A DNA stretch of 63,650 bases, the filler included, from Rhabdomonas costata (taxonomy: Eukaryota), in NCBI GenBank assembly GCA_019059605.1. It is 33 parts of 33 records of this genome, joined end to end, with 100 filler letters (N's around TTAATTAATTAA, not from the genome) between each part and the next. Parts side by side here need not be neighbours in the genome. Positions count along the whole stretch, not along the records: positions 13,543 to 15,372 come from JAHMHO010008458.1; 32 more parts are not named here. The stretch is one strand, 5' to 3'. The notes under the pieces were generated by a model. The model was given only the letters and a program-made list of their open reading frames with translations. It was not told where the DNA came from and did no database searches. How positions within the stretch are numbered: the stretch's first letter is position 1; each line of letters opens with the position of its first letter. Positions 10,245 to 50,479 of the stretch are shown here, in pieces. Position numbers and translations under genes: made by a program.

Positions 10245-12484
10245 AGTGCCCTTTCCCTGGCGGCCCTCCCTCTCTTCCCGTGCAAAGCCATATGCCTTTG
10301 GTCCCTTGCAGGGCCAGAGGTGCCCCTACCCCCGCACCTATTTTTTTGTACAGCCGTGTGTGTATGTGTGAGGATGACTATGTCATGTCTTCCAACTCTC
10401 TACCCCACTCCTTCTCTCTAGCTCTGTCTTCCCCCACACACTTTGGTGTGCCACCCTGTTGCTTCACCTGCACGCAGCATTTCCTTCCCACCTTAGGAAC
10501 ACGCGGAATGGGGTGTGTGGCCAAAAAAGAAGAAGCAGACTTGTGGACTAGCCCCGGAGATTGGGTTCCATCGCTGCGTATTGCGACAATGGTGTGATAA
10601 TATTTCTGGCGTTGAAGTATGTCCCGGGGAGTTTCAACGAATGGTATAGAAACTGCAGTCACCGGAAAGGCGCGTCTGCGCAAAGCGAGCTTTTGACGCA
10701 TCAAATGCCGATGGCAAACTGGTTATAAAAATAGTGACTTTGTATCTGTGAGGCTGTTGTGTGCGTCCGACTTTGAACACTGGACAATGTTAGTTGATTT
10801 GTAGCGGGTTTTTTAAAATAGTGACAGGCAGTTTTCTGGTCACAGTTGTGCAGTGGAGCAGAAAACTTCATTTACAGGCCATCGGATGGAGAAAGGCTTT
10901 GGAGTGCTGCGTTTGGGGGACTTATGTCCCCAATGTTTTCCGCAAAATTTCCTATACGGAACGTAAGTTGCAGTGCTAGAATGAACGAAGGCCCGTTCAG
11001 GGGTAAGGTCCCCCTGAATTTCCCCATTCACAGCAACCGCCATGGGTAAGATGCCTTTCTCCCCATCTCCGCGATTCAGAAGGGTGTGTCTCCCGCCCAA
11101 ACACGGTGGCCCCTATCCGCTCTATCGCGCAAGTGACGCTGACTTCTCTATCCCTCTTACTGTCTCACTGTATCGCTCAGGTTGGCTTCTCCCTCTCTCC
11201 ACCCCCACTCTGTCTTCCTTTTCCTTTCTATGTTGTGAATACCGCCGTGGCGCGCGGGTGTTGTGTTCCTCCTGCGTTTCTCTATTTTTGAAGCAATTCG
11301 AGTTTTCGTTCTGGGGCTGCGCGTATGGGTGTGTGTGGCTCTGTGCGTGCTTGGTTTGCGTGTATGCGTATGTCAGTTTACATTCCGGTCCTTTTGCTGC
11401 TTGCCCCTTGATTGGTATTGGGCGGCTGGTTGGGGGATGGTGCGAAGAGGTTGTTGTTGTACTTTGTTGGCGTCAGGGATGATGCAGGTCTTCTCCACCA
11501 CACCCNNNNNNNNNNNNNNNNNNNNNNNNNNNNNNNNNNNNNNNNNNNNTTAATTAATTAANNNNNNNNNNNNNNNNNNNNNNNNNNNNNNNNNNNNNNN
11601 NNNNNGCAACCTACAACGAAATACAAGGAGATATTTGTATGCTTGTTGCATTTCGTAACCACAAGCTAGCGACGGGGGACCATTGCAGTTGACCCACCAA
11701 ACCGAAGCACAGCAAAGTTCAGAGTAGACTGAAGGGTTGCATGCGAAGATCACCAAAGGACACTGTACAAATGAGCTGCAAAAAAAATAATCAAAAAGAA
11801 CCTCAGTGACATACGTGTACGTCGAAGAAGGCGAGAGCCCTGAGTACGAGACAGGGAGAGAGGATAGATACAAGGTGAGCACACAAAGGTCAGAAAAGTC
11901 AGAAAGCTAGTGGAGTTGAGCAATGCAAGTGCGGGGAGACGGGGGGACGGACCAGCCAAGCCGGCGGGGGTTGTGGGAACAGAACGAGAGCACTCGGAGG
12001 CCTCGCGCTGGGTGGCATCACACACGGTGGGGCTGAGGTGGCCCGTCCATGTGCGGCTCCACTGGGAACGAACTGAAGGCGATCGGAAAGGGCAGAACCT
12101 ACTTCCCTCCTTCGGAAAGGCAGATCAGGTCAGAAGAAGGTCAGAAATTCAGGTCAGGTCAGAAAAATTTGGGTCCACAGTCACACAACTATTGACAAGA
12201 AAAGTGCGAGGCTGGATTCCAGAAAACCTTTAGAAATCCAACAAGGGCACCTGTTCTTCAAGCCTAAAAAGACTAGGACTGTCACAGTGTCCAGAGTTCA
12301 AAGTTGGCGCCGACAACAGCAGATCAGAAAGAAGGAGGAGAAGAGGACGAAAAACACTAGTGCATCTTCCGCTGGGGAAAAAGTGCACGTGCCGAAAAAC
12401 AAAGCGACCTGGCGACTGAGCTCCGCAAGCTCTTTCCGAAAGGTTCTCGGAACTCCTGCAGTTGAAGAAAAAAGAAAGTGGTCC

Positions 12485-12578
12485 AAAAACAAAGACAAAA
12501 ACAAAAACAAAAACAAAAACAAAAAAACAAAAACAAAAACAAAAACAAAAACAAAAACAAAAACAAAAACAAAAACAA
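12485..12578 (+). repeat. (AAAAAC)n hexanucleotide microsatellite
   Basis: About 15 nearly perfect units; source of the spurious KTKTK/FVFVF ORFs. Confidence 0.95.
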
Positions 12579-13619
12579 ATGCTAAAAGCCACACAACAAC
12601 GGGACACAGTCGCTGGCTTTTCGATTGCCTATTGTCATTTGGTGTCCATGTGTGTTCATCGCTGCTTCAGATTGCCTTTATTAATGGCCGAGTAAAGCAA
12701 ATGGAAAAAACCTGCAAAAAAGCAAAAAAAAAAAAAGCACCTGGGCTGTGAAGCTTTTTCGTCTGCCTTGCTGACCTGAAAAAAAAATCACCGAAAGGAT
12801 CAAGTGCACAGTTTCAAGTGAACAATTGATGATACGCTGCTATGGCTACCATAACGAAAGATGCCGTGAAAACTTCCCGCTCACTGCCACTAGCTACCAC
12901 TTAATCTTCGGCCAGGGACAGATTGCAAATTTCCACGGGAAATCTTTCGCTCAGGAAAAAGCATCCATGAACGATAAAGTGCATTTTTGGTTGGAAATAT
13001 CAGCCTATAACAGCGCACCTGCTCAGTCTTCTCAGTCTTCTCAGTCCTGGGGACCTCACCGCTCTGCTTGGTCAGAGTAAGTGCTGGTGCTGCAGAGAAA
13101 CCAAATGACAACCACCTATCCTGTTGCAAAATCCAGTCGCCGGAAAAAGACTGCAGGGGGAGGATATACCTTGCACGGGATGCTGCAGCACTACCGTGCG
13201 GGCAGGCTCGCGGCGTGAGACCGTACCCCGCTCGTTGTCGAGTCAGTAGAAAGCTTTATTGTCCTGGGCGGCTCCATCACTTAGACGGAAAAAAAAAGGA
13301 ATGTCTCGGGGAAAATTCTTTGGAAGAACCTTCACTCAAGGGAAATTTCTTTTGTTGTGTATGCCATCACAAGAGCTAAAAATTGGGCGTACCAACAATG
13401 GGATTGCTGCGAACTTCTGGGTTCAGGGATCGAGTCACAACANNNNNNNNNNNNNNNNNNNNNNNNNNNNNNNNNNNNNNNNNNNNTTAATTAATTAANN
13501 NNNNNNNNNNNNNNNNNNNNNNNNNNNNNNNNNNNNNNNNNNGTGTTTTGTTTCTTCACTGTGGTGGGAAAGGGAGACACCCTGGACAAAACTTCACAGC
13601 TCGCCTTTTCGAGGCATAC

Positions 13620-14756
13620 CTTCCCCCCTCAGGCTGCACCACGGCCACGGAGGCCACCACGGCACCCTTCAAGGTGAGGTCGACCCTCTGCGTGGCCCCC
13701 GGGGCGTCGTCCCCAGGGCACAGCCCAGCGGGGAAGCCCGTGATGAAGGTTGGCCCCGCCGCCGCGGCCGTGGGGACGTACTTCTGAAACAGCATGTCGA
13801 GCAGCACGCAGGAGTTGTCGTCGGCTGGGAGCTCCTCGCCGAGAAACTTGCACTGCGAGGCCTTCTCCAGGAAGGTCATCAGGGGAACGGCAGGGAAGGG
13901 CGGGGTGAAGTCCATGTCCACCCCGGTGCTGGCGTTGTCCTCGGCGAATTTCACCTTGTGGTTGCCGACCAGCTCCCTGACCAAGCTGGCGATCATGTCC
14001 TGATGAGAACACACAAACTTGAGCTTCACCATTCACCCCTCCAAAATTCTAAATCCCCTGGTTCGACATTGGTTTTTTTTGCGGGGTGTGCCAACACTGC
14101 GGCAACATGCAGGCATGCCCGCAAAAACGGGGTGCCAGTTGTTCAGGCTCAGAGTCCGAGGTGGGCAAACGGCAAATAAATGTACACTGCTTGTATAGAG
14201 AAAGAAAGGCAAGGGAAAAAAGAAAGGAAGGCATGAGACAAACGGAAAGAAAGGAATGATGGGTGGAAGGAGTTTGACATTCTTTTCTTTTGAATCCAAT
14301 TGAGGACAACATCCAAAACTGCGTGGGGGATCCGAATCAGGTCACGATGCGTCCGCACGATGCGTCTTCAACTTAATATAGAAAAATCCCCCACGAATGC
14401 CTCCTTCGCCCGCCCTCAACAGAGATATGAGCGAATCGAAAACCGGCCTAAATAAAAAAGTCTCCATCACTCCCGGGCTGCATGAAGACGAGTAGTGAAT
14501 GGCGAGCGGGCGGGCGGCAGGCGCAGGCAAGGGGGAAGGTAAGGGGGTGGAAAGCGGACCTGGACGAGCCCTTGGACCTGAGCCAGGCTCTCATCCCGCC
14601 ACGTCAGCGCGACCTGGCTGGAAGTCGATGAGGTGTTTTCATCGTCCAGCCCACGGCTTCGCGCCCAGCTTAGCACAAAGGAGCGAACCTCCTCCGTGGA
14701 CTCATCCTCAGGGTTGGGCCGGGACCGGGGCATCGCCGCAGACGGCCACGGCCTAC
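13620..14756 (-). CDS. Lysyl-tRNA synthetase (class IIb)-like protein with degenerate catalytic motifs, 2 exons
   Basis: Exons ~14756-14560 and 13999-13620 joined by a phase-0 GT-AG intron. VQGLVQ|DMIASLVRELVGNHKVKF...VDMDFTPPFPAVPLMTFLEKA...LLDMLFQKYV...PTFITGFPAGLCP...TQRVDLTLKG follows eukaryotic LysRS (E.MISG.V....G.YKV....DFTPPF.......LEK; LLDKL..EF.E....PTFI...P..MSPL; ERFELF). Confidence 0.75.
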
Positions 14757-17404
14757 CTACACACACTCTTTATCTTTGCGCTTTGGATAAAAATGAGGAA
14801 AATAAAAACCTGTTTGAGAGCATGCAAATAGAAATGGACGGAGGGAGCTGGGGTGGCATCGTTGGATTCCGGGCGTCCTGACTGCGATTTGTTTTTGTAC
14901 AAAGTATGCAGGGCATTACAATTTACCATCTATGTTCATCGATTACACGATTGACCTCACTGTCTCTGTGGGACTTCTGGCTGTGCCATTCAGAATCGCA
15001 ACCACTCGTGCTGAGTTGGGTATCACGGACCCACAATCAAGGACAAGAGAATAAAAAATGGATTGTTATGCAAAAACAACAACATCATCAACCGCACTTT
15101 GCCATATTCTTTTTATTGGAAGGGATTTGAACCCTGTTCATATAGGAAGGGGGGCGGGCGAAGCGGATCCTGACTGTAACAAGACGCATCAACTACCGAA
15201 ACAGTTCTCAGGCTTCGGGCTGAATGGACGGGACTCTCACCTCGCAACCTGACAAGGGCCATACATCATCAATAGTCAGTTCTGTCTTAAAAACCGGCCA
15301 GCAATGGTGATCACACACTTTGTCGCTCTGCTGAAGGTTGGCGCTCAAGATGCAGCTTCACCACCACAACCCNNNNNNNNNNNNNNNNNNNNNNNNNNNN
15401 NNNNNNNNNNNNNNNNTTAATTAATTAANNNNNNNNNNNNNNNNNNNNNNNNNNNNNNNNNNNNNNNNNNNNTGTTTGTGGTCGCCAGTGATTAAAGGGT
15501 GAGGGCCCTCGCCGGGCACGCCCATTAAAAGACAGCGAGGAGAGCGGGTGCAGAGGGTGGCCCGTAGAGCGCGAGCCTCCCACCAGTCTGTTTTTGAGAA
15601 GGGAGGGGGACCCGTCGAAGACGGTCTCTATCCGCTCCCGCAACGCAAAAACCAGTGGTGGGGGAGGGGGGCAAAGTGACTGGACCTCCAGTGCGAGGTG
15701 ATACTGGGGAGGTGAAACTGGCGAGGTGAAACTGTTCGATCTAGTTTTTTGTTTGGTTTTGATCGAAAATTGCTTGAGTCGTTTTTAGCTGTCGGCCGAA
15801 AAATCTTTGCCGAGTGTCCGCTTTGAAACCGTGCACTGCAGCACGGAACATTGAAATCCGACGTTGGTCCGTCTCCAAATCCCAGTAAAAAGAGTCCGGT
15901 TGCGGGGGATGTGTAGGATTTTGGCGGAGACGATTGAAATTCAGGAGCAGGCGATACCTGTGTGCTGTGCTGTTTTGACAACATGCTGAGCATAAAAGCA
16001 ATTATACATGCACCGCAAAAATGAGGGTGAGGGGGGGGGGGTTCGTTGGGTCCACCAGCCGAAGGTTTCAGATGGCGTCAGAAGGCAACTGAGTCATCGT
16101 GAGTCATTCCCAACACCCCCACCATGTCGTTGCTGCTCTCTCTTTTTCAAATACCCCTCCCCTACCCACCAGCATTACCGAGGTACTTCCCCAAACAGTG
16201 CCTCGTGGTCCTAATTCCCCACCCATTTTTCCCTGCCTACGCTTTGTCTTACAATTCCTCCTTTTGCTTTTATGCTTGCTTTCGTACAATCTCCTTCCAT
16301 ACAATCTGCGAACATCATCATGTGTCATGCGGCGGGGATTATTTGAAGGCGAGCGCGAGTCGCTGCGGCTGCCGCAGACCCTTCAGATTAGGTTATCACG
16401 CTCCAAAAATAGGGTATCTGTGATGAGATCGGTCGTGATTAAGGTTTTGGGTACCTTGCAGTGACATCAGGAGGATTGCTGGGAAAATCAACCCCGAAGC
16501 GAGGGGTAATTTTCAAGATTCGAAACTTGCTTATATTCATGAACCCAAAGAACCCAAAGCGCAGCGGTGGCCGTGCTTCTTCTTCTTCTTTTCTTTCCCT
16601 TTTTCTTTTCTTTTCGATAACTTACATTTGGGTGAGACTCAAAGCACTCAAAGCCCCTCACGTGAAAGGAAATGGTGGTGGTAGTGGTTCTGAAAACACA
16701 ATCAACCGGTGCCCACTCCCTGAAATTCCATCCAACCCCATGGAACAATCTAATTCCTCATTATGGTTCCTTCTTGCCCAACTGTCGCTTCTTCCTCTCA
16801 GTCAGTAACACAACTGTAAGACAACAATAACCCACTCGCAAGCAAGTCTGGGATACGAGCGGCAGCGGATTTCCAACGCGCTCCTGCGTTTGTTTGTATG
16901 AATCGCTCACAAGGCGCGTGTTGAAATTTTCCGATTGCCCTTTCTAAAGGTGTGCCAAACCGTCCCCACAAAACCTGGGCATTCCATCTGAATACATCTA
17001 AACCATCTACCAATCTAACCATCGAAAACCATCTCATTCTGCTGGAGTTCTGAGACTCACACAAGAAGCAGCAGTAAGGTCCCTGCCACCACATCGCCAC
17101 GTTTCCTTCTGTTTCTACCTGCCGCCATCTGTCGCGATCTAAGCCGAATTTTATGTTGAGAAAAGGTTATTGTTTGCCGCATTGCGACTGCTCGAGTGGG
17201 GGCAACCGCAAAACTGAGGTTGGGTTTTCGTGTCCCAAACGCAACCTGCGCTTTCCAATGTAAATAAGTCGAAAAGTTGCCAACCCACGAATTTCTTTTC
17301 ACCGNNNNNNNNNNNNNNNNNNNNNNNNNNNNNNNNNNNNNNNNNNNNTTAATTAATTAANNNNNNNNNNNNNNNNNNNNNNNNNNNNNNNNNNNNNNNN
17401 NNNN

Positions 17405-46761: not shown

Positions 46762-47575
46762 TCACTCAGAGGAGGTGTACAAGAAGTTGAGCTCCAGGGG
46801 TTTGAGATCTGGGTTGGCCTTGAGGAAACCCGGGAAGTCCCACGACGGGCGATCCGTAGAAGCCACTCGGACAGGCTGCCCTCCCTGCTGGAACAGCACA
46901 AAGATGTACCGGTGCACCCCAGCAGGGGGCGCTGGGCCGCGGTGGCTGACTACCTCCTTTCCAGAGGCGGCCGACCCTTCGGGGACAAAGCGGCGGTGGG
47001 AGGAGGCAGGAGAGTTGGGCGAAGGGGGAAGAATGCACGAAAACAAGAATACATCCGACTGCACCACATGACAGCGCTTGAATTCGTTTGAATAGGACTG
47101 GATACTACCAAAACAAGCATTTCAGTGCGAACTCAACTCAAGTGAACTCAGTCAGAGTTCCCCCCACAGCATCCAAAATATGATCCAATGCGGTTGTCAC
47201 TTGACAAGTTGGAAATTGGCTTGACACAGTGGGCGAGGACATTTTCCTCACGAGTGACCTGCCGGAGTATCACAGCCCCCCCAAGAGCTCACACACAGGC
47301 GCACTGCTCGTACCCACGGCATCTGTGACGAGCCAGTGCAGCCAGGGCCCCTTCGCTCCCGGGGTGGAGCCATCTCCTACCCGAGTGGGGGCGTCTGGAT
47401 CGACGTATACCAGCGCGCAAGGACCGTACTCAGGGGGCCACTGCACCACGGGCTGCGTCTGCAGAAAGCGGTCCTTGGACTTCGAGAATTTCTCCGCCCC
47501 ATTGATAGCTGTGGGCCCGAACCTAACGGAGAGCTTCTTCAGGGAGGCAGGAATGCCCACCTTAGAAAGGTATAT
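46762..47575 (-). CDS. Phosphatidylethanolamine-binding protein (PEBP/RKIP family), last 2 exons
   Basis: Exons ~47575-47314 and 46976-46762 (stop): ALVYVDPDAP...PWLHWLVTDAVG|SAASGKEVVSHRGPAPPAGVHRYIFVLFQQ...DRPSWDF. DPDAP, HW and GxHRY motifs intact. Confidence 0.93.
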
Positions 47576-50479
47576 CTGTAACAGCAGCACAAAACGCCTG
47601 GGCTTTGACTCCGACTTGTGAACAGGAAGAGCTCTGCAAACGAAGAAAAGGGAAAGATTACCATTGCATCTTGCATCCTTGGTGGGGAGCAGTGTCAAAA
47701 AGCACTGTACGAAGCAAAGGATAAACGCCTCGTGGGAGTAACATGGAACAGAGTCGCTCGCGAAAGGCTTCGTTTGTGCTGGCCCAGAGTGCGGGCCACC
47801 TGGGGCTCGGCTCTTCACATGACTGTCGCAAAAGCTTCCGCAAAGGGCAACAGGAGGCACCTGGTATCATACCAAAATTACCGACTTATCAAAGGAATGT
47901 CATATTGCCGGAAAAAAGTTCAAAAAAGTCTTCTGCTGAAATCTCAGCGAAAGGTATAGCATGCAATGAAAGCCAGGAACGACCAATCCCATCCCGATCC
48001 ATGACTTCTTCCCAATACACACAGAGCATGGAAAGTACAGAAGTACACACAGTAAAGAAAACCGACCAACCCCACGACAAACACAAATGCTCAGCAGGAA
48101 AGGAGAGTGACCCCTGAATGCCACCGTCCTCCACACTCTTGCTGTTCACCAGCAAGTGTGCTGTTGAAGCCCGAGTAGTGAATGCCTCTCTCAACACACA
48201 ANNNNNNNNNNNNNNNNNNNNNNNNNNNNNNNNNNNNNNNNNNNNTTAATTAATTAANNNNNNNNNNNNNNNNNNNNNNNNNNNNNNNNNNNNNNNNNNN
48301 NTGTTGTGTGGAAAGAAGAGCGGAGTAGTGCGTAAAAGTTACCTGCAGCAGGCATCTAGACTCGCACTACTCCGCTCTTCTTTCCATACAACAGTTCACG
48401 TGTATACAATGTTTCCGGACCCATTTTGCCTGACTTTGGTGTTTGGCAAACGGCAACGTTGCGCAAGGCGCTCTCTGAATGTTTTTCCCAGCAAAACACC
48501 GAAGATGACAAAGTGATACCAAAAAGTATTTTCTACACATCAGAGGTTGGTCGAAGCCCCATGCTGCATTGGGCTTACGAGTCCAAAGCGTCGCTGCACC
48601 ACTCTACGCCAAAAACGAGCAAAAGGGAGAAACGAAGGAGAGAAACATTTTCAATAAAACCGCCATTAGGGCCCGGCGGCCAAGCCGCCACCGCTCCCAT
48701 GTATGCCGGATGAAAATCCATCGGGCATTGCAAAGGAAGGGGGCGGTGTATGAAAGACTATGACATCAAGTTACAAAGGCAGGCGGCTCTCCCACACCTG
48801 CAGGCCCTTCCAGAACAGATGAGAACAAATGCAAGGGCAACGGGTTCTCGAGTTTGGAGGGGTTGCCTTTGAGAAAAGTAAACACACAACGAGGGGGAAA
48901 TCGGGATGCATTACCGGAGAAGCGGTTGCTCACATAAAAACGTCGCTTCTCTCCACTCCCCCTCTCCCCTGCGCTGTGCTGTGAACTCAAAAGACTAACT
49001 TTCCCATTTCTGAAATCCCTAAAGAAAACACCACGCGTGGGCATCGAGTTCAGAGGGGTCTATCCGAGATAAACTAACACAGACCAAGACAAAAAAGAAA
49101 TCGCCAAAGAAAGGCATCGCTTCTAATCCTACTCCCCCCTCTCCGAGCTCAGAGACTGTGCAGACAATCGGCATAACAATCCAGAACAGCACGTTTGCGG
49201 GTAACCAATAGATTACATTGGGTTGTGGGGTGGGTGGGGCTGCGCGGTACGAGCACTGCACACAGAAGGGTGGTAAGCTGATTGGGAGGGGGGCATCATA
49301 ATTAATCTGCCACATATCCAGAAACACATACCGCAATAACAGTCTGTGGCCTTCAAGCTTGCAACTTGATGTAGGAGGCCAGCAATAAGGGGGAAGGGGG
49401 AGCGAGAAAAACACACTCCAATTTGAACAGAAGTGTGTCTGGTGAGTGAGCACAGAATAACATGTCATCCATTAGCAAGTAGAGGAGAAGAGTCACCGTG
49501 GTTCATAGAAGCACGAGACAGGACGGAGGTCATGAATGGAAGCCAGTGCTGCACAGAATGGAGTACAGTAAAACGTGAGTAAAGAAAAAACGCACGCGAA
49601 ACTACACGCACCAAATCCAACTGCAAGATCCGTAACTTGCCTCACCGATAATCTAATATTCCTCCAATTTGAGAATGGCGCGGGCAGAAGGAATATGCCA
49701 GTAATTGAGAAAGGAAGTGGGGTATGCGAACGCTGATGGAGAGGGCAGGAAATCCACGGTTGAAAAAATCAAAGGTAAGGTTGGGGTGGGGTGGAGACAA
49801 AGGCGCACAAGTCCGAGCGCTGAGCATTGCGCATTGCACCGCGAACCAAGCGTTTCCATCAGCAGGTGACTGGTGAGGAGACAAGCACAGGTCCATGGGT
49901 ACGGGCCGCTCAACTGCCCAGCAGGGGAGGAAAGCCAAGGACAACGAAACTACTAGTCACACAGGCGCTCACAGGACGGGACCACCGAGTCACCAAGCTC
50001 CACAAGGTCCACAAGGCGACAACCGAAGCAAAACCAACCGGTGTCGAGCAAAATTATCGCGAGTTGCCAAAAGCTTGCGCACGTCAAAAAGAACACTGTC
50101 TTTATTGACTTTCACAGTGACACCAACACANNNNNNNNNNNNNNNNNNNNNNNNNNNNNNNNNNNNNNNNNNNNTTAATTAATTAANNNNNNNNNNNNNN
50201 NNNNNNNNNNNNNNNNNNNNNNNNNNNNNNGGGGGTGGGGGGAAGGTTTGGTGCGAAAGGCAGCATAGCATCTGCTCAGGCCAAAACCAAACCCTGGGAT
50301 GCTCACCACAGTTGCTACCAAGGGAACGGCAAAACCAGTGTTCGTCGGCTGGTTCGCAGTCAGTTGAGAATGGGATCCTCATTTTTGACCAAGTTCCAAC
50401 GAGCGTGGCCCGCATCCTTTTGATTCCCCTCTTTAACCAAGCCCTGATTAACACCAGCGCACGAGCGAACGAAACAGAC

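Follow-up and report, generated by a model that had tools for sequence, protein, structure and literature searches.

A two-exon locus on an unplaced contig of Rhabdomonas costata

The sequence analysed here is a stretch of 63,650 nucleotides, filler included, from the genome of Rhabdomonas costata (GCA_019059605.1), hereafter called the window, and the element in question is a two-exon protein-coding locus on its minus strand. The encoded domain resembles lysyl-tRNA synthetase (LysRS), and its closest relatives are found at the N-terminus of the heavy chain of dynein-2, the dynein of intraflagellar transport (IFT). The window consists of contigs, each about 1.83 kb long, strung together by 32 linkers, every linker being made up of 44 N, TTAATTAATTAA and a further 44 N. 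Since these linkers join separate contigs, the neighbouring contigs are not the genomic context of the locus, and any finding that spans a linker or rests on gene order in this stretch is unsafe. The contig carrying the locus is unplaced, comprises 1,830 bases (13543..15372) and is bounded by N44-TTAATTAATTAA-N44 linkers at both ends.

The first coding exon (exon A; 14560..14733, minus strand) opens with an ATG at 14733-14731, continues for 57 further codons, ends CAG|GT and carries the degenerate counterpart of LysRS motif 2. It is followed by an intron of 560 nt (14000..14559, minus strand) with GT..AG borders and a guanine-plus-cytosine (GC) content of about 0.50, and then by the second coding exon (exon B; 13620..13999, minus strand), which consists of 126 codons and two bases, ends AAG|GTATGC and encodes the LysRS helix after motif 2, a shortened insertion domain, the PTFI..FP motif and a strand with R-x-D-L. 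The remaining bases up to the contig end (13543..13619, minus strand), where GC drops, are the start of the next intron; if exon B is left unspliced at 13620, an in-frame stop is met at 13558-13556. Both sides of the junction between the exons are in phase 0 and the frame is continuous, with no stop in 58 + 126 codons, and the gap-free alignment to the relatives described below across this junction supports the splice site. At the three codon positions GC is 0.62/0.45/0.82 in the open reading frame (ORF) of exon B and 0.65/0.57/0.76 in exon A, and the contig has no GC-rich islands other than these two exons. The original prediction for this locus had described two exons with an intact frame, canonical splice sites and codons rich in GC at the third position (GC3), all of which is borne out by the GT..AG intron, the common phase 0 and GC3 values of 0.76-0.82.

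The ATG at 14733-14731 is the likely start codon. In alignments it lies no more than a dozen residues or so from the relatives' start codons, and no further GC-rich exon-like island occurs upstream of exon A on the contig; for these two reasons exon A is read as the first coding exon. Further upstream, a pyrimidine-rich tract recognised by reading the sequence (14785..14809, minus strand) lies 5' of several AG dinucleotides, the last of them at 14754-14753. Tract and AG together may constitute a spliced-leader acceptor or a cis acceptor of the 5' untranslated region, and the AG near 14754 is not necessarily an acceptor for cis splicing. Spliced-leader trans-splicing is named as a feature of Euglenozoa in a passage of a preprint, and it is this passage together with the relatives that connects the locus to the phylum.

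Similarity to lysyl-tRNA synthetase

Every one of the motifs by which the LysRS scaffold had originally been recognised (DFTPPF, LEKA, LLDML and PTFI..FP...CP) is present in the two exons. When the exon-B ORF was compared with PDB sequences, 13 distinct entries were retrieved at E<=10, of which 12 are LysRS, with Plasmodium and human enzymes as the best matches (E 7e-6 to 7e-5; 29 bits). The likeness of the exons to LysRS is real, statistical as well as visual. Exon A alone gave only a chance match in the PDB (E 2.3), and Pfam returned no match for either exon ORF even at E<=10; in a comparison of ESM Atlas features, which serves as a lead only, the exon-B ORF was nearest to tRNA-synt_2 clusters (0.93). 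An apicomplexan origin, which the Plasmodium enzymes at the head of the PDB matches could bring to mind, was rejected, as the nearest relatives are euglenozoan dyneins.

Relatives at the N-terminus of dynein-2 heavy chains

An exhaustive HMMER search with the exon-B ORF against 1.84 billion representative proteins returned five proteins at E<=0.001, the two strongest relatives being dynein heavy chains and the other three ordinary LysRS fragments. The best match, P0003 (E 2.6e-9), is aligned over residues 61-177 of 1737 and P0005 over residues 60-179 of 2565, and in both proteins Pfam identifies DHC_N1 (from about residue 247), DHC_N2, AAA_6 and DYNC2H1_AAA_dom. A family-profile search for longer proteins gave P0003 as its sole match, and a scan of metagenome contigs with exon B as single query produced 596 pattern matches and no relatives. 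The domain was further found on full-length dynein-2 chains (4,232-4,327 residues) of Diplonema papillatum, Rhynchopus humris, R. euleeides and Sulcionema specki, on those of Lacrimia lanifica, Flectonema neradi and Namystynia karyoxenos, and on the environmental records P0010, P0015 and P0017, which gives ten family members, all of them dynein-2 N-termini; the annotation of the relatives in the databases is cytoplasmic dynein 2 heavy chain. P0015 is a dynein-2 heavy chain of 4,292 residues that nearly fills a contig of 13,245 bases, and Pfam shows the full dynein-2 architecture for both P0015 and P0008. The possibility that the fusion arises from chimeric gene models was rejected, since the same architecture occurs in the transcriptome assemblies of seven species, in one genome-based NCBI model and on the P0015 contig.

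A hidden Markov model (HMM) built from four diplonemid N-termini was searched against the first 320 residues of 18 dynein-2 chains, and 10 of the 18 matched with E between 1e-7 and 1e-125. Among the seven canonical chains in this set (fish, chytrids, insect and others), five were reported at E 0.76-2, below 0 bits, and two were not listed; P0016, an N-terminally truncated transcript, was not listed either. P0017 (4232 residues) is a very divergent dynein-2 chain, the N-terminus of which scores 21.9 bits against the family profile and the tree branch of which measures 4.4-4.9; it might be a second heavy-chain type like the kinetoplastid DHC2.2.

The spliced product of the R. costata exons aligns best with P0015, at 90 bits, its residues 14-180 matching P0015 residues 2-163, and within this alignment the exon A region corresponds to P0015 residues 2-46. 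On its own, exon A finds P0015 residues 2-35 (E 2.6e-5 in a search of a small database). With the diplonemid HMM, 69.4 bits are obtained for the spliced product and 61.6 for exon B alone, and only 7 of 1000 controls with a shuffled exon A reach 69.4 bits. At 24 of the 36 columns where at least eight of the ten other members agree, the R. costata product carries the family residue, and the remaining 12 columns show mostly conservative changes (K/R, D/E, L/M, F/L, T/S). All eight invariant columns of the 11-sequence alignment are kept as well, these columns having been computed with the R. costata product included. Alignments and profile scores together place the predicted R. costata domain within the dynein-2 N-terminal family, and we infer that the gene continues into dynein. 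The conserved columns that are kept, along with the intact start, junctions, phase and GC3 periodicity, argue for purifying selection acting on the fold and against a decaying copy. The earlier view of a maintained non-catalytic LysRS derivative is upheld by the same observations, namely the 24 identical columns and the retained frame, splice sites and GC3. The locus should not be annotated as a LysRS gene or pseudogene.

Profile, fold and lost residues of the family domain

The family profile and alignment (alignment A3) comprise 11 sequences, including that of R. costata. Searched against the PDB, the profile found human LysRS at E 1.5e-16, with profile positions 38-168 aligned to chain positions 269-428, and all 20 PDB sequences at E<=5.3e-4 were LysRS; LysRS of E. 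coli and two other LysRS chains, which we take to be bacterial, reached E 0.07-0.4 only. Comparison of the family with three LysRS fragments by hhalign gave a probability of 99.2% (E 1.6e-19). The Pfam family tRNA-synt_2 (PF00152) was matched weakly by four of five family members, the best at E 2.3e-5, with member 1 at 16.9 bits for a cut-off of 25.

An AlphaFold2 model of the P0015 domain based on the 11 sequences has a predicted local distance difference test score (pLDDT) of 83.3 and a predicted template modelling (TM) score of 0.83; a model based on five sequences (pLDDT 49.9) was not used. Modelling of a homologue in this way may be biased towards the fold of the parent. Foldseek places only LysRS chains at the top of its PDB matches for the model (E 2e-12, TM 0.64-0.67 on the query), and with VIA-align against 48,161 chains the LysRS matches have Z 14.8 (182 of 202 residues, root-mean-square deviation 3.0) and 14.6, followed by AspRS, AsnRS, GenX/EpmA and AsnA at Z 12-14. 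All 50 VIA-align rows listed are synthetases or other proteins that share the class II fold, POLG2 and HisZ included. Profile and structure comparison had been put forward originally as the check on the LysRS assignment, and both the hhalign probability and the two fold searches agree with it.

The alignment of P0015 with human LysRS (E 1.1e-10) begins exactly at motif 2, with LRSKGLD... under FRNEGID..., and the first exon of R. costata reads ARSRGLD... in place of FRNEGID.... Within motif 2, human FRNEGIDLTHNPEF aligns to LRSKGLDSQNVSDENG in P0015 and to ARSRGLDDENTSS in R. costata, the arginine alone being retained; as the R. costata product aligns with P0015 across this stretch without gaps, the correspondence drawn for motif 2 in the original prediction stands. 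The motif-2 arginine is retained in most family members, and the H, N, P, E and F of the motif-2 loop are replaced. Of ERFELF..G.E..N.Y.E only R-x-D-L is retained, with V, S, A or T at the acidic and amide positions that follow, and about 32 residues spanning the G-x-G-x-G-x-D-R region, which includes the motif-3 arginine, are absent in the family. In class IIb enzymes the residues of these three regions bind ATP, Mg and lysine. The alignments thereby agree with the claims that catalytic residues had been replaced, in the motif-2 loop and among the G.E..N.Y.E ligands, and that the insertion domain had been shortened, with some 21 residues of the LysRS insertion missing both from R. costata and from the family. 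As read from the alignments, the family protein begins at motif 2, so that the anticodon-binding OB domain and motif 1 are missing, and would keep the sheet-and-helix scaffold of class II enzymes with a shortened insertion. The domain is a conserved derivative of LysRS that has lost its catalytic residues.

In P0015 (residues ~170-202) and the diplonemid equivalents, a conserved segment of the pattern L..NLTD.SE[VI]..LP.EW joins the synthetase-like domain to the dynein tail, and in MAFFT alignments it resembles the motif-3 helix and C-terminus of LysRS (L.MLLTDS.SI.EV.LFP). The fold alignments extend to the C-terminal end of the LysRS chains. The likeness of LTD..E..LP to the motif-3 helix is retained as a suggestion at the level of the modelled fold only.

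Position relative to the usual dynein-2 N-terminus

The DHC_N2 domain begins at residue 1118 of P0015 and residue 1121 of a fish dynein-2, AAA_6 at 1634 and 1650, respectively, and the DHC_N1 match starts at profile position 137 at residue 252 in P0015 vs profile position 59 at residue 164 in the fish protein. Because the downstream domains are in register and the total lengths are alike, the domain replaces the usual first ~200 residues and is no extension of the chain. Homology between the family and seven canonical dynein-2 N-termini remained undetected by hhalign (probability 0.1%). Neither the sequence search nor the fold searches of the PDB retrieved a dynein chain, an absence which for the fold searches says little. 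The two heavy chains of dynein-1 are joined by an N-terminal dimerization domain made up of their first 200 residues, as described in passages of two papers (PMC5473941; PMC8410232), and the domain studied here spans residues ~1-200 of its heavy chain, the same place as the dimerization domain of dynein-1.

Proposed role and alternative explanations

We consider it very probable that the locus, with its start codon and the ~184 initial codons, forms the 5' end of a DHC2/DYNC2H1-type heavy-chain gene in a euglenozoan-like protist, and probable that its exons are the initial two coding exons of a gene for a dynein-2 heavy chain whose LysRS-derived N-terminus is catalytically dead. The ~200 N-terminal residues of the heavy chain in this lineage would be a truncated copy of eukaryotic cytosolic LysRS from which motif 1 and the anticodon-binding domain are gone, as are the ATP loop of motif 2, the Mg and lysine ligands and the region of the motif-3 arginine. 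The dead synthetase core would have taken the place of the ancestral dynein N-terminal domain as a structural module which holds or orients the two heavy chains or their tail partners, and it would bind neither ATP, lysine nor tRNA. Such a structural module is proposed because the domain occupies the place of the canonical N-terminus without homology to it. As to origin, one may speculate that the 3' part of a duplicated LysRS gene was fused to the dynein-2 gene. A role of the domain in dimerization of the heavy chain can be proposed tentatively, by analogy with dynein-1. The more comprehensive scenario, in which a duplicated cytosolic LysRS gene supplied its 3' two-thirds to replace the ancestral dimerization domain outright in a euglenozoan lineage and the core now joins heavy chains or selects their partners, is a rather speculative one and appears doubtful at present. 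Homodimer predictions for two P0015 domains, computed without an alignment, scored 0.22 and 0.27 where the mark is 0.32 and provide no evidence either way.

A number of observations weigh against this assignment. The contig stops 77 bases past exon B and contains no dynein tail or motor sequence; tblastn searches of the stretch with the full dynein-2 chains P0015 and P0008 found this contig only, and other queries remained at chance level (E 0.94). Exon A alone is not significant against the diplonemid profile, with 0.1 bits, a value reached by 49 of 1000 shuffles. The identity of the R. costata product to any relative is only 24-34%, its end branch of 1.45 (family median 0.59) is exceeded among the 11 family rows only by that of P0017, and in a 13-row tree, of which one of ten inner branches is well supported and which was not used for lineage claims, it has no well-supported grouping. 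The fold model is that of P0015 and not of the R. costata protein. The resemblance of the C-terminal helix of the family (LTD..E..LP) to the motif-3 helix of LysRS lacks significance at the sequence level, the score being reached by 106 of 2000 shuffles. With tRNA-synt_2 clusters excluded, residues 1-215 of P0003 are nearest to DHC_N1 clusters in the ESM Atlas (0.94, 167 shared features), in a feature comparison that is unvalidated for parts of proteins; this likeness may stem from the ~35 residues at the end of the segment, already part of the tail, or from the whole-protein context. Lastly, the absence of motif 1, which is the classical dimer interface of class II enzymes, weakens the case for dimerization in the manner of a synthetase.

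Some of these features would also suit a free-standing pseudo-LysRS of about 205 residues, ending at the stop at 13558-13556 and serving LysRS as partner or regulator, or sensing tRNA. The in-frame stop lies just 62 bases beyond the proposed donor, the contig has no dynein sequence, and the identity to LysRS fragments (26-29%) is near that to diplonemid dynein N-termini (24-30%). The scores are nevertheless far apart, at 90 bits to P0015 and 69 to the family HMM vs 29 to LysRS, and the R. costata product has the derived features of the family, namely the start at motif 2, the ~21-residue deletion, FP for HP...SPLAK and R-x-D-L. Moreover, AAG|GTATGC is a good donor beyond which there is no similarity to the relatives and GC drops, and a protein without an anticodon-binding domain and motif 1 would lack the means of tRNA binding or LysRS pairing, so that we regard a free-standing protein as improbable. 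The LysRS heterodimer partner or activator and the tRNA sensor offered in the original prediction find no support on the same ground; of its four options, the domain of a larger protein is the only one that fits, all ten family members being dynein-2 N-termini. A decaying, duplicated 5' fragment of a dynein-2 or LysRS gene, open merely because GC-rich DNA has few stops, is likewise conceivable in view of the short unplaced contig, the long end branch (1.45 vs a median of 0.59) and two further frames over exon B, one on the same strand with one stop in 128 codons and one on the opposite strand that is free of stops for 226 codons. However, conservation is concentrated at the positions conserved in the family (24 of 36 identical vs 24-34% overall), the eight invariant columns are all kept (with the R. 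costata product counted in defining them), the asymmetry between codon positions is retained (GC3 0.82 vs 0.45 at the second position), and start codon, both splice junctions and phase are intact; a decaying copy is, in our judgement, very improbable.

With the dynein-2 identity unchanged, the domain could be a docking surface and not a dimerization element, binding IFT-train components, an intermediate or light-intermediate chain, or a small ligand. The absence of motif 1 as the class II dimer interface would be in keeping with this, as would the use of other domains derived from aminoacyl-tRNA synthetases (aaRS) as binding or regulatory modules, of which the HisRS-like domain of GCN2 is an example and POLG2 and HisZ are among the fold matches. 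Human dynein-2 heavy chains are described, in an excerpt of a preprint, as taking different conformations to match the IFT-B repeats (bioRxiv 10.64898/2026.05.12.724483). On the other side, the positional equivalence to the dynein-1 dimerization domain favours dimerization, and the replacement of the ATP and lysine ligands makes binding of the ancestral ligands unlikely. Docking of tail partners or IFT-train components is a serious alternative to dimerization, though on balance we think it rather unlikely.

Comparison with known systems

Of the two families that meet in this protein, eukaryotic cytosolic LysRS (class IIb; human KARS1, Plasmodium KRS) shares with the domain a homology that runs from motif 2 to the strands before motif 3, together with the predicted fold; it differs in that the family domain has hydrophobic residues in place of the Mg and lysine ligands and is fused to a motor protein of 4,000 residues. 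Canonical dynein-2 heavy chains (DYNC2H1/DHC1b) resemble the relatives, which have the complete dynein-2 architecture with downstream domains at nearly the same residue numbers, but differ in the N-terminal domain, for which no homology is detectable (hhalign 0.1%, HMM below 0 bits). Reuse of a class II core outside tRNA charging is shared with EpmA/GenX, AsnA, HisZ, POLG2 and the HisRS-like domain of GCN2, and several of these are fold matches of the P0015 model (GenX Z 12.7, AsnA 12.2, POLG2 8.3, HisZ 6.9). EpmA and AsnA are still enzymes with intact ATP sites, and HisZ, POLG2 and GCN2 derive from class IIa cores; in contrast to the present domain, none of the five is part of a cytoskeletal motor.

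DHC2.1 and DHC2.2 of Trypanosoma brucei (Tb927.4.560 and Tb927.11.2430) belong to the same motor in the same phylum, Euglenozoa. According to the text available from PMC4148251, kinetoplastids have two IFT dynein heavy-chain genes with highly divergent N-terminal regions, and Pfam DHC_N1 is not found in DHC2.2; the word "synthetase" does not occur in the main text of that paper. Unlike the R. costata relatives, of which one dynein-2 gene per diplonemid species turned up in our searches, DHC2.1 and DHC2.2 act as a heterodimer.

Full-text literature searches gave no description of a synthetase-like domain in a dynein heavy chain, and automated superfamily annotations in databases may already flag the fold. 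The dynein-2 heavy chain and the repurposed synthetase fold are each known, and their combination appears to be undescribed in the searched literature. The original remark that no described eukaryotic family of this kind was known is to be qualified to this extent: the relatives are present in databases as dynein 2 heavy chains, and it is their synthetase-like N-terminus that the searched literature leaves undescribed.

The architecture of dynein heavy chains is among the most conserved in eukaryotes, and most known cases of repurposed synthetase domains come from signalling and replication proteins. An N-terminus derived from a synthetase in an IFT motor, conserved in at least seven diplonemid species and in R. 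costata, would be a new architecture for both families, with an aminoacyl-tRNA synthetase fold as a load-bearing part of a cytoskeletal motor if the proposal is true. It may in that case underlie the unusual heavy-chain pairing of euglenozoan IFT dynein, which is a heterodimer in kinetoplastids. It would also offer a handle on dynein-2 tail assembly in Euglenozoa, the phylum that includes the trypanosomes, and an example of how a fragment of a housekeeping enzyme becomes a structural module.

Other features of the window

On other contigs of the window, three features were noted. For the contig at 50179-50742 a cyclase gene had been suspected, of which Pfam gave no confirmation. An ORF at 47270-47866 (minus strand) has a weak match to PF01161 (E 6.7e-4, 20.4 bits for a cut-off of 24) and, going by this match, is probably an exon of a phosphatidylethanolamine-binding-protein (PEBP) gene. 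At ~12480-12620, on a contig neighbouring that of the dynein-like locus, there is a long hexanucleotide-type microsatellite that reads KNKNKN/KTKTKT in one frame and FVFVFV/CFCFCF on the other strand.

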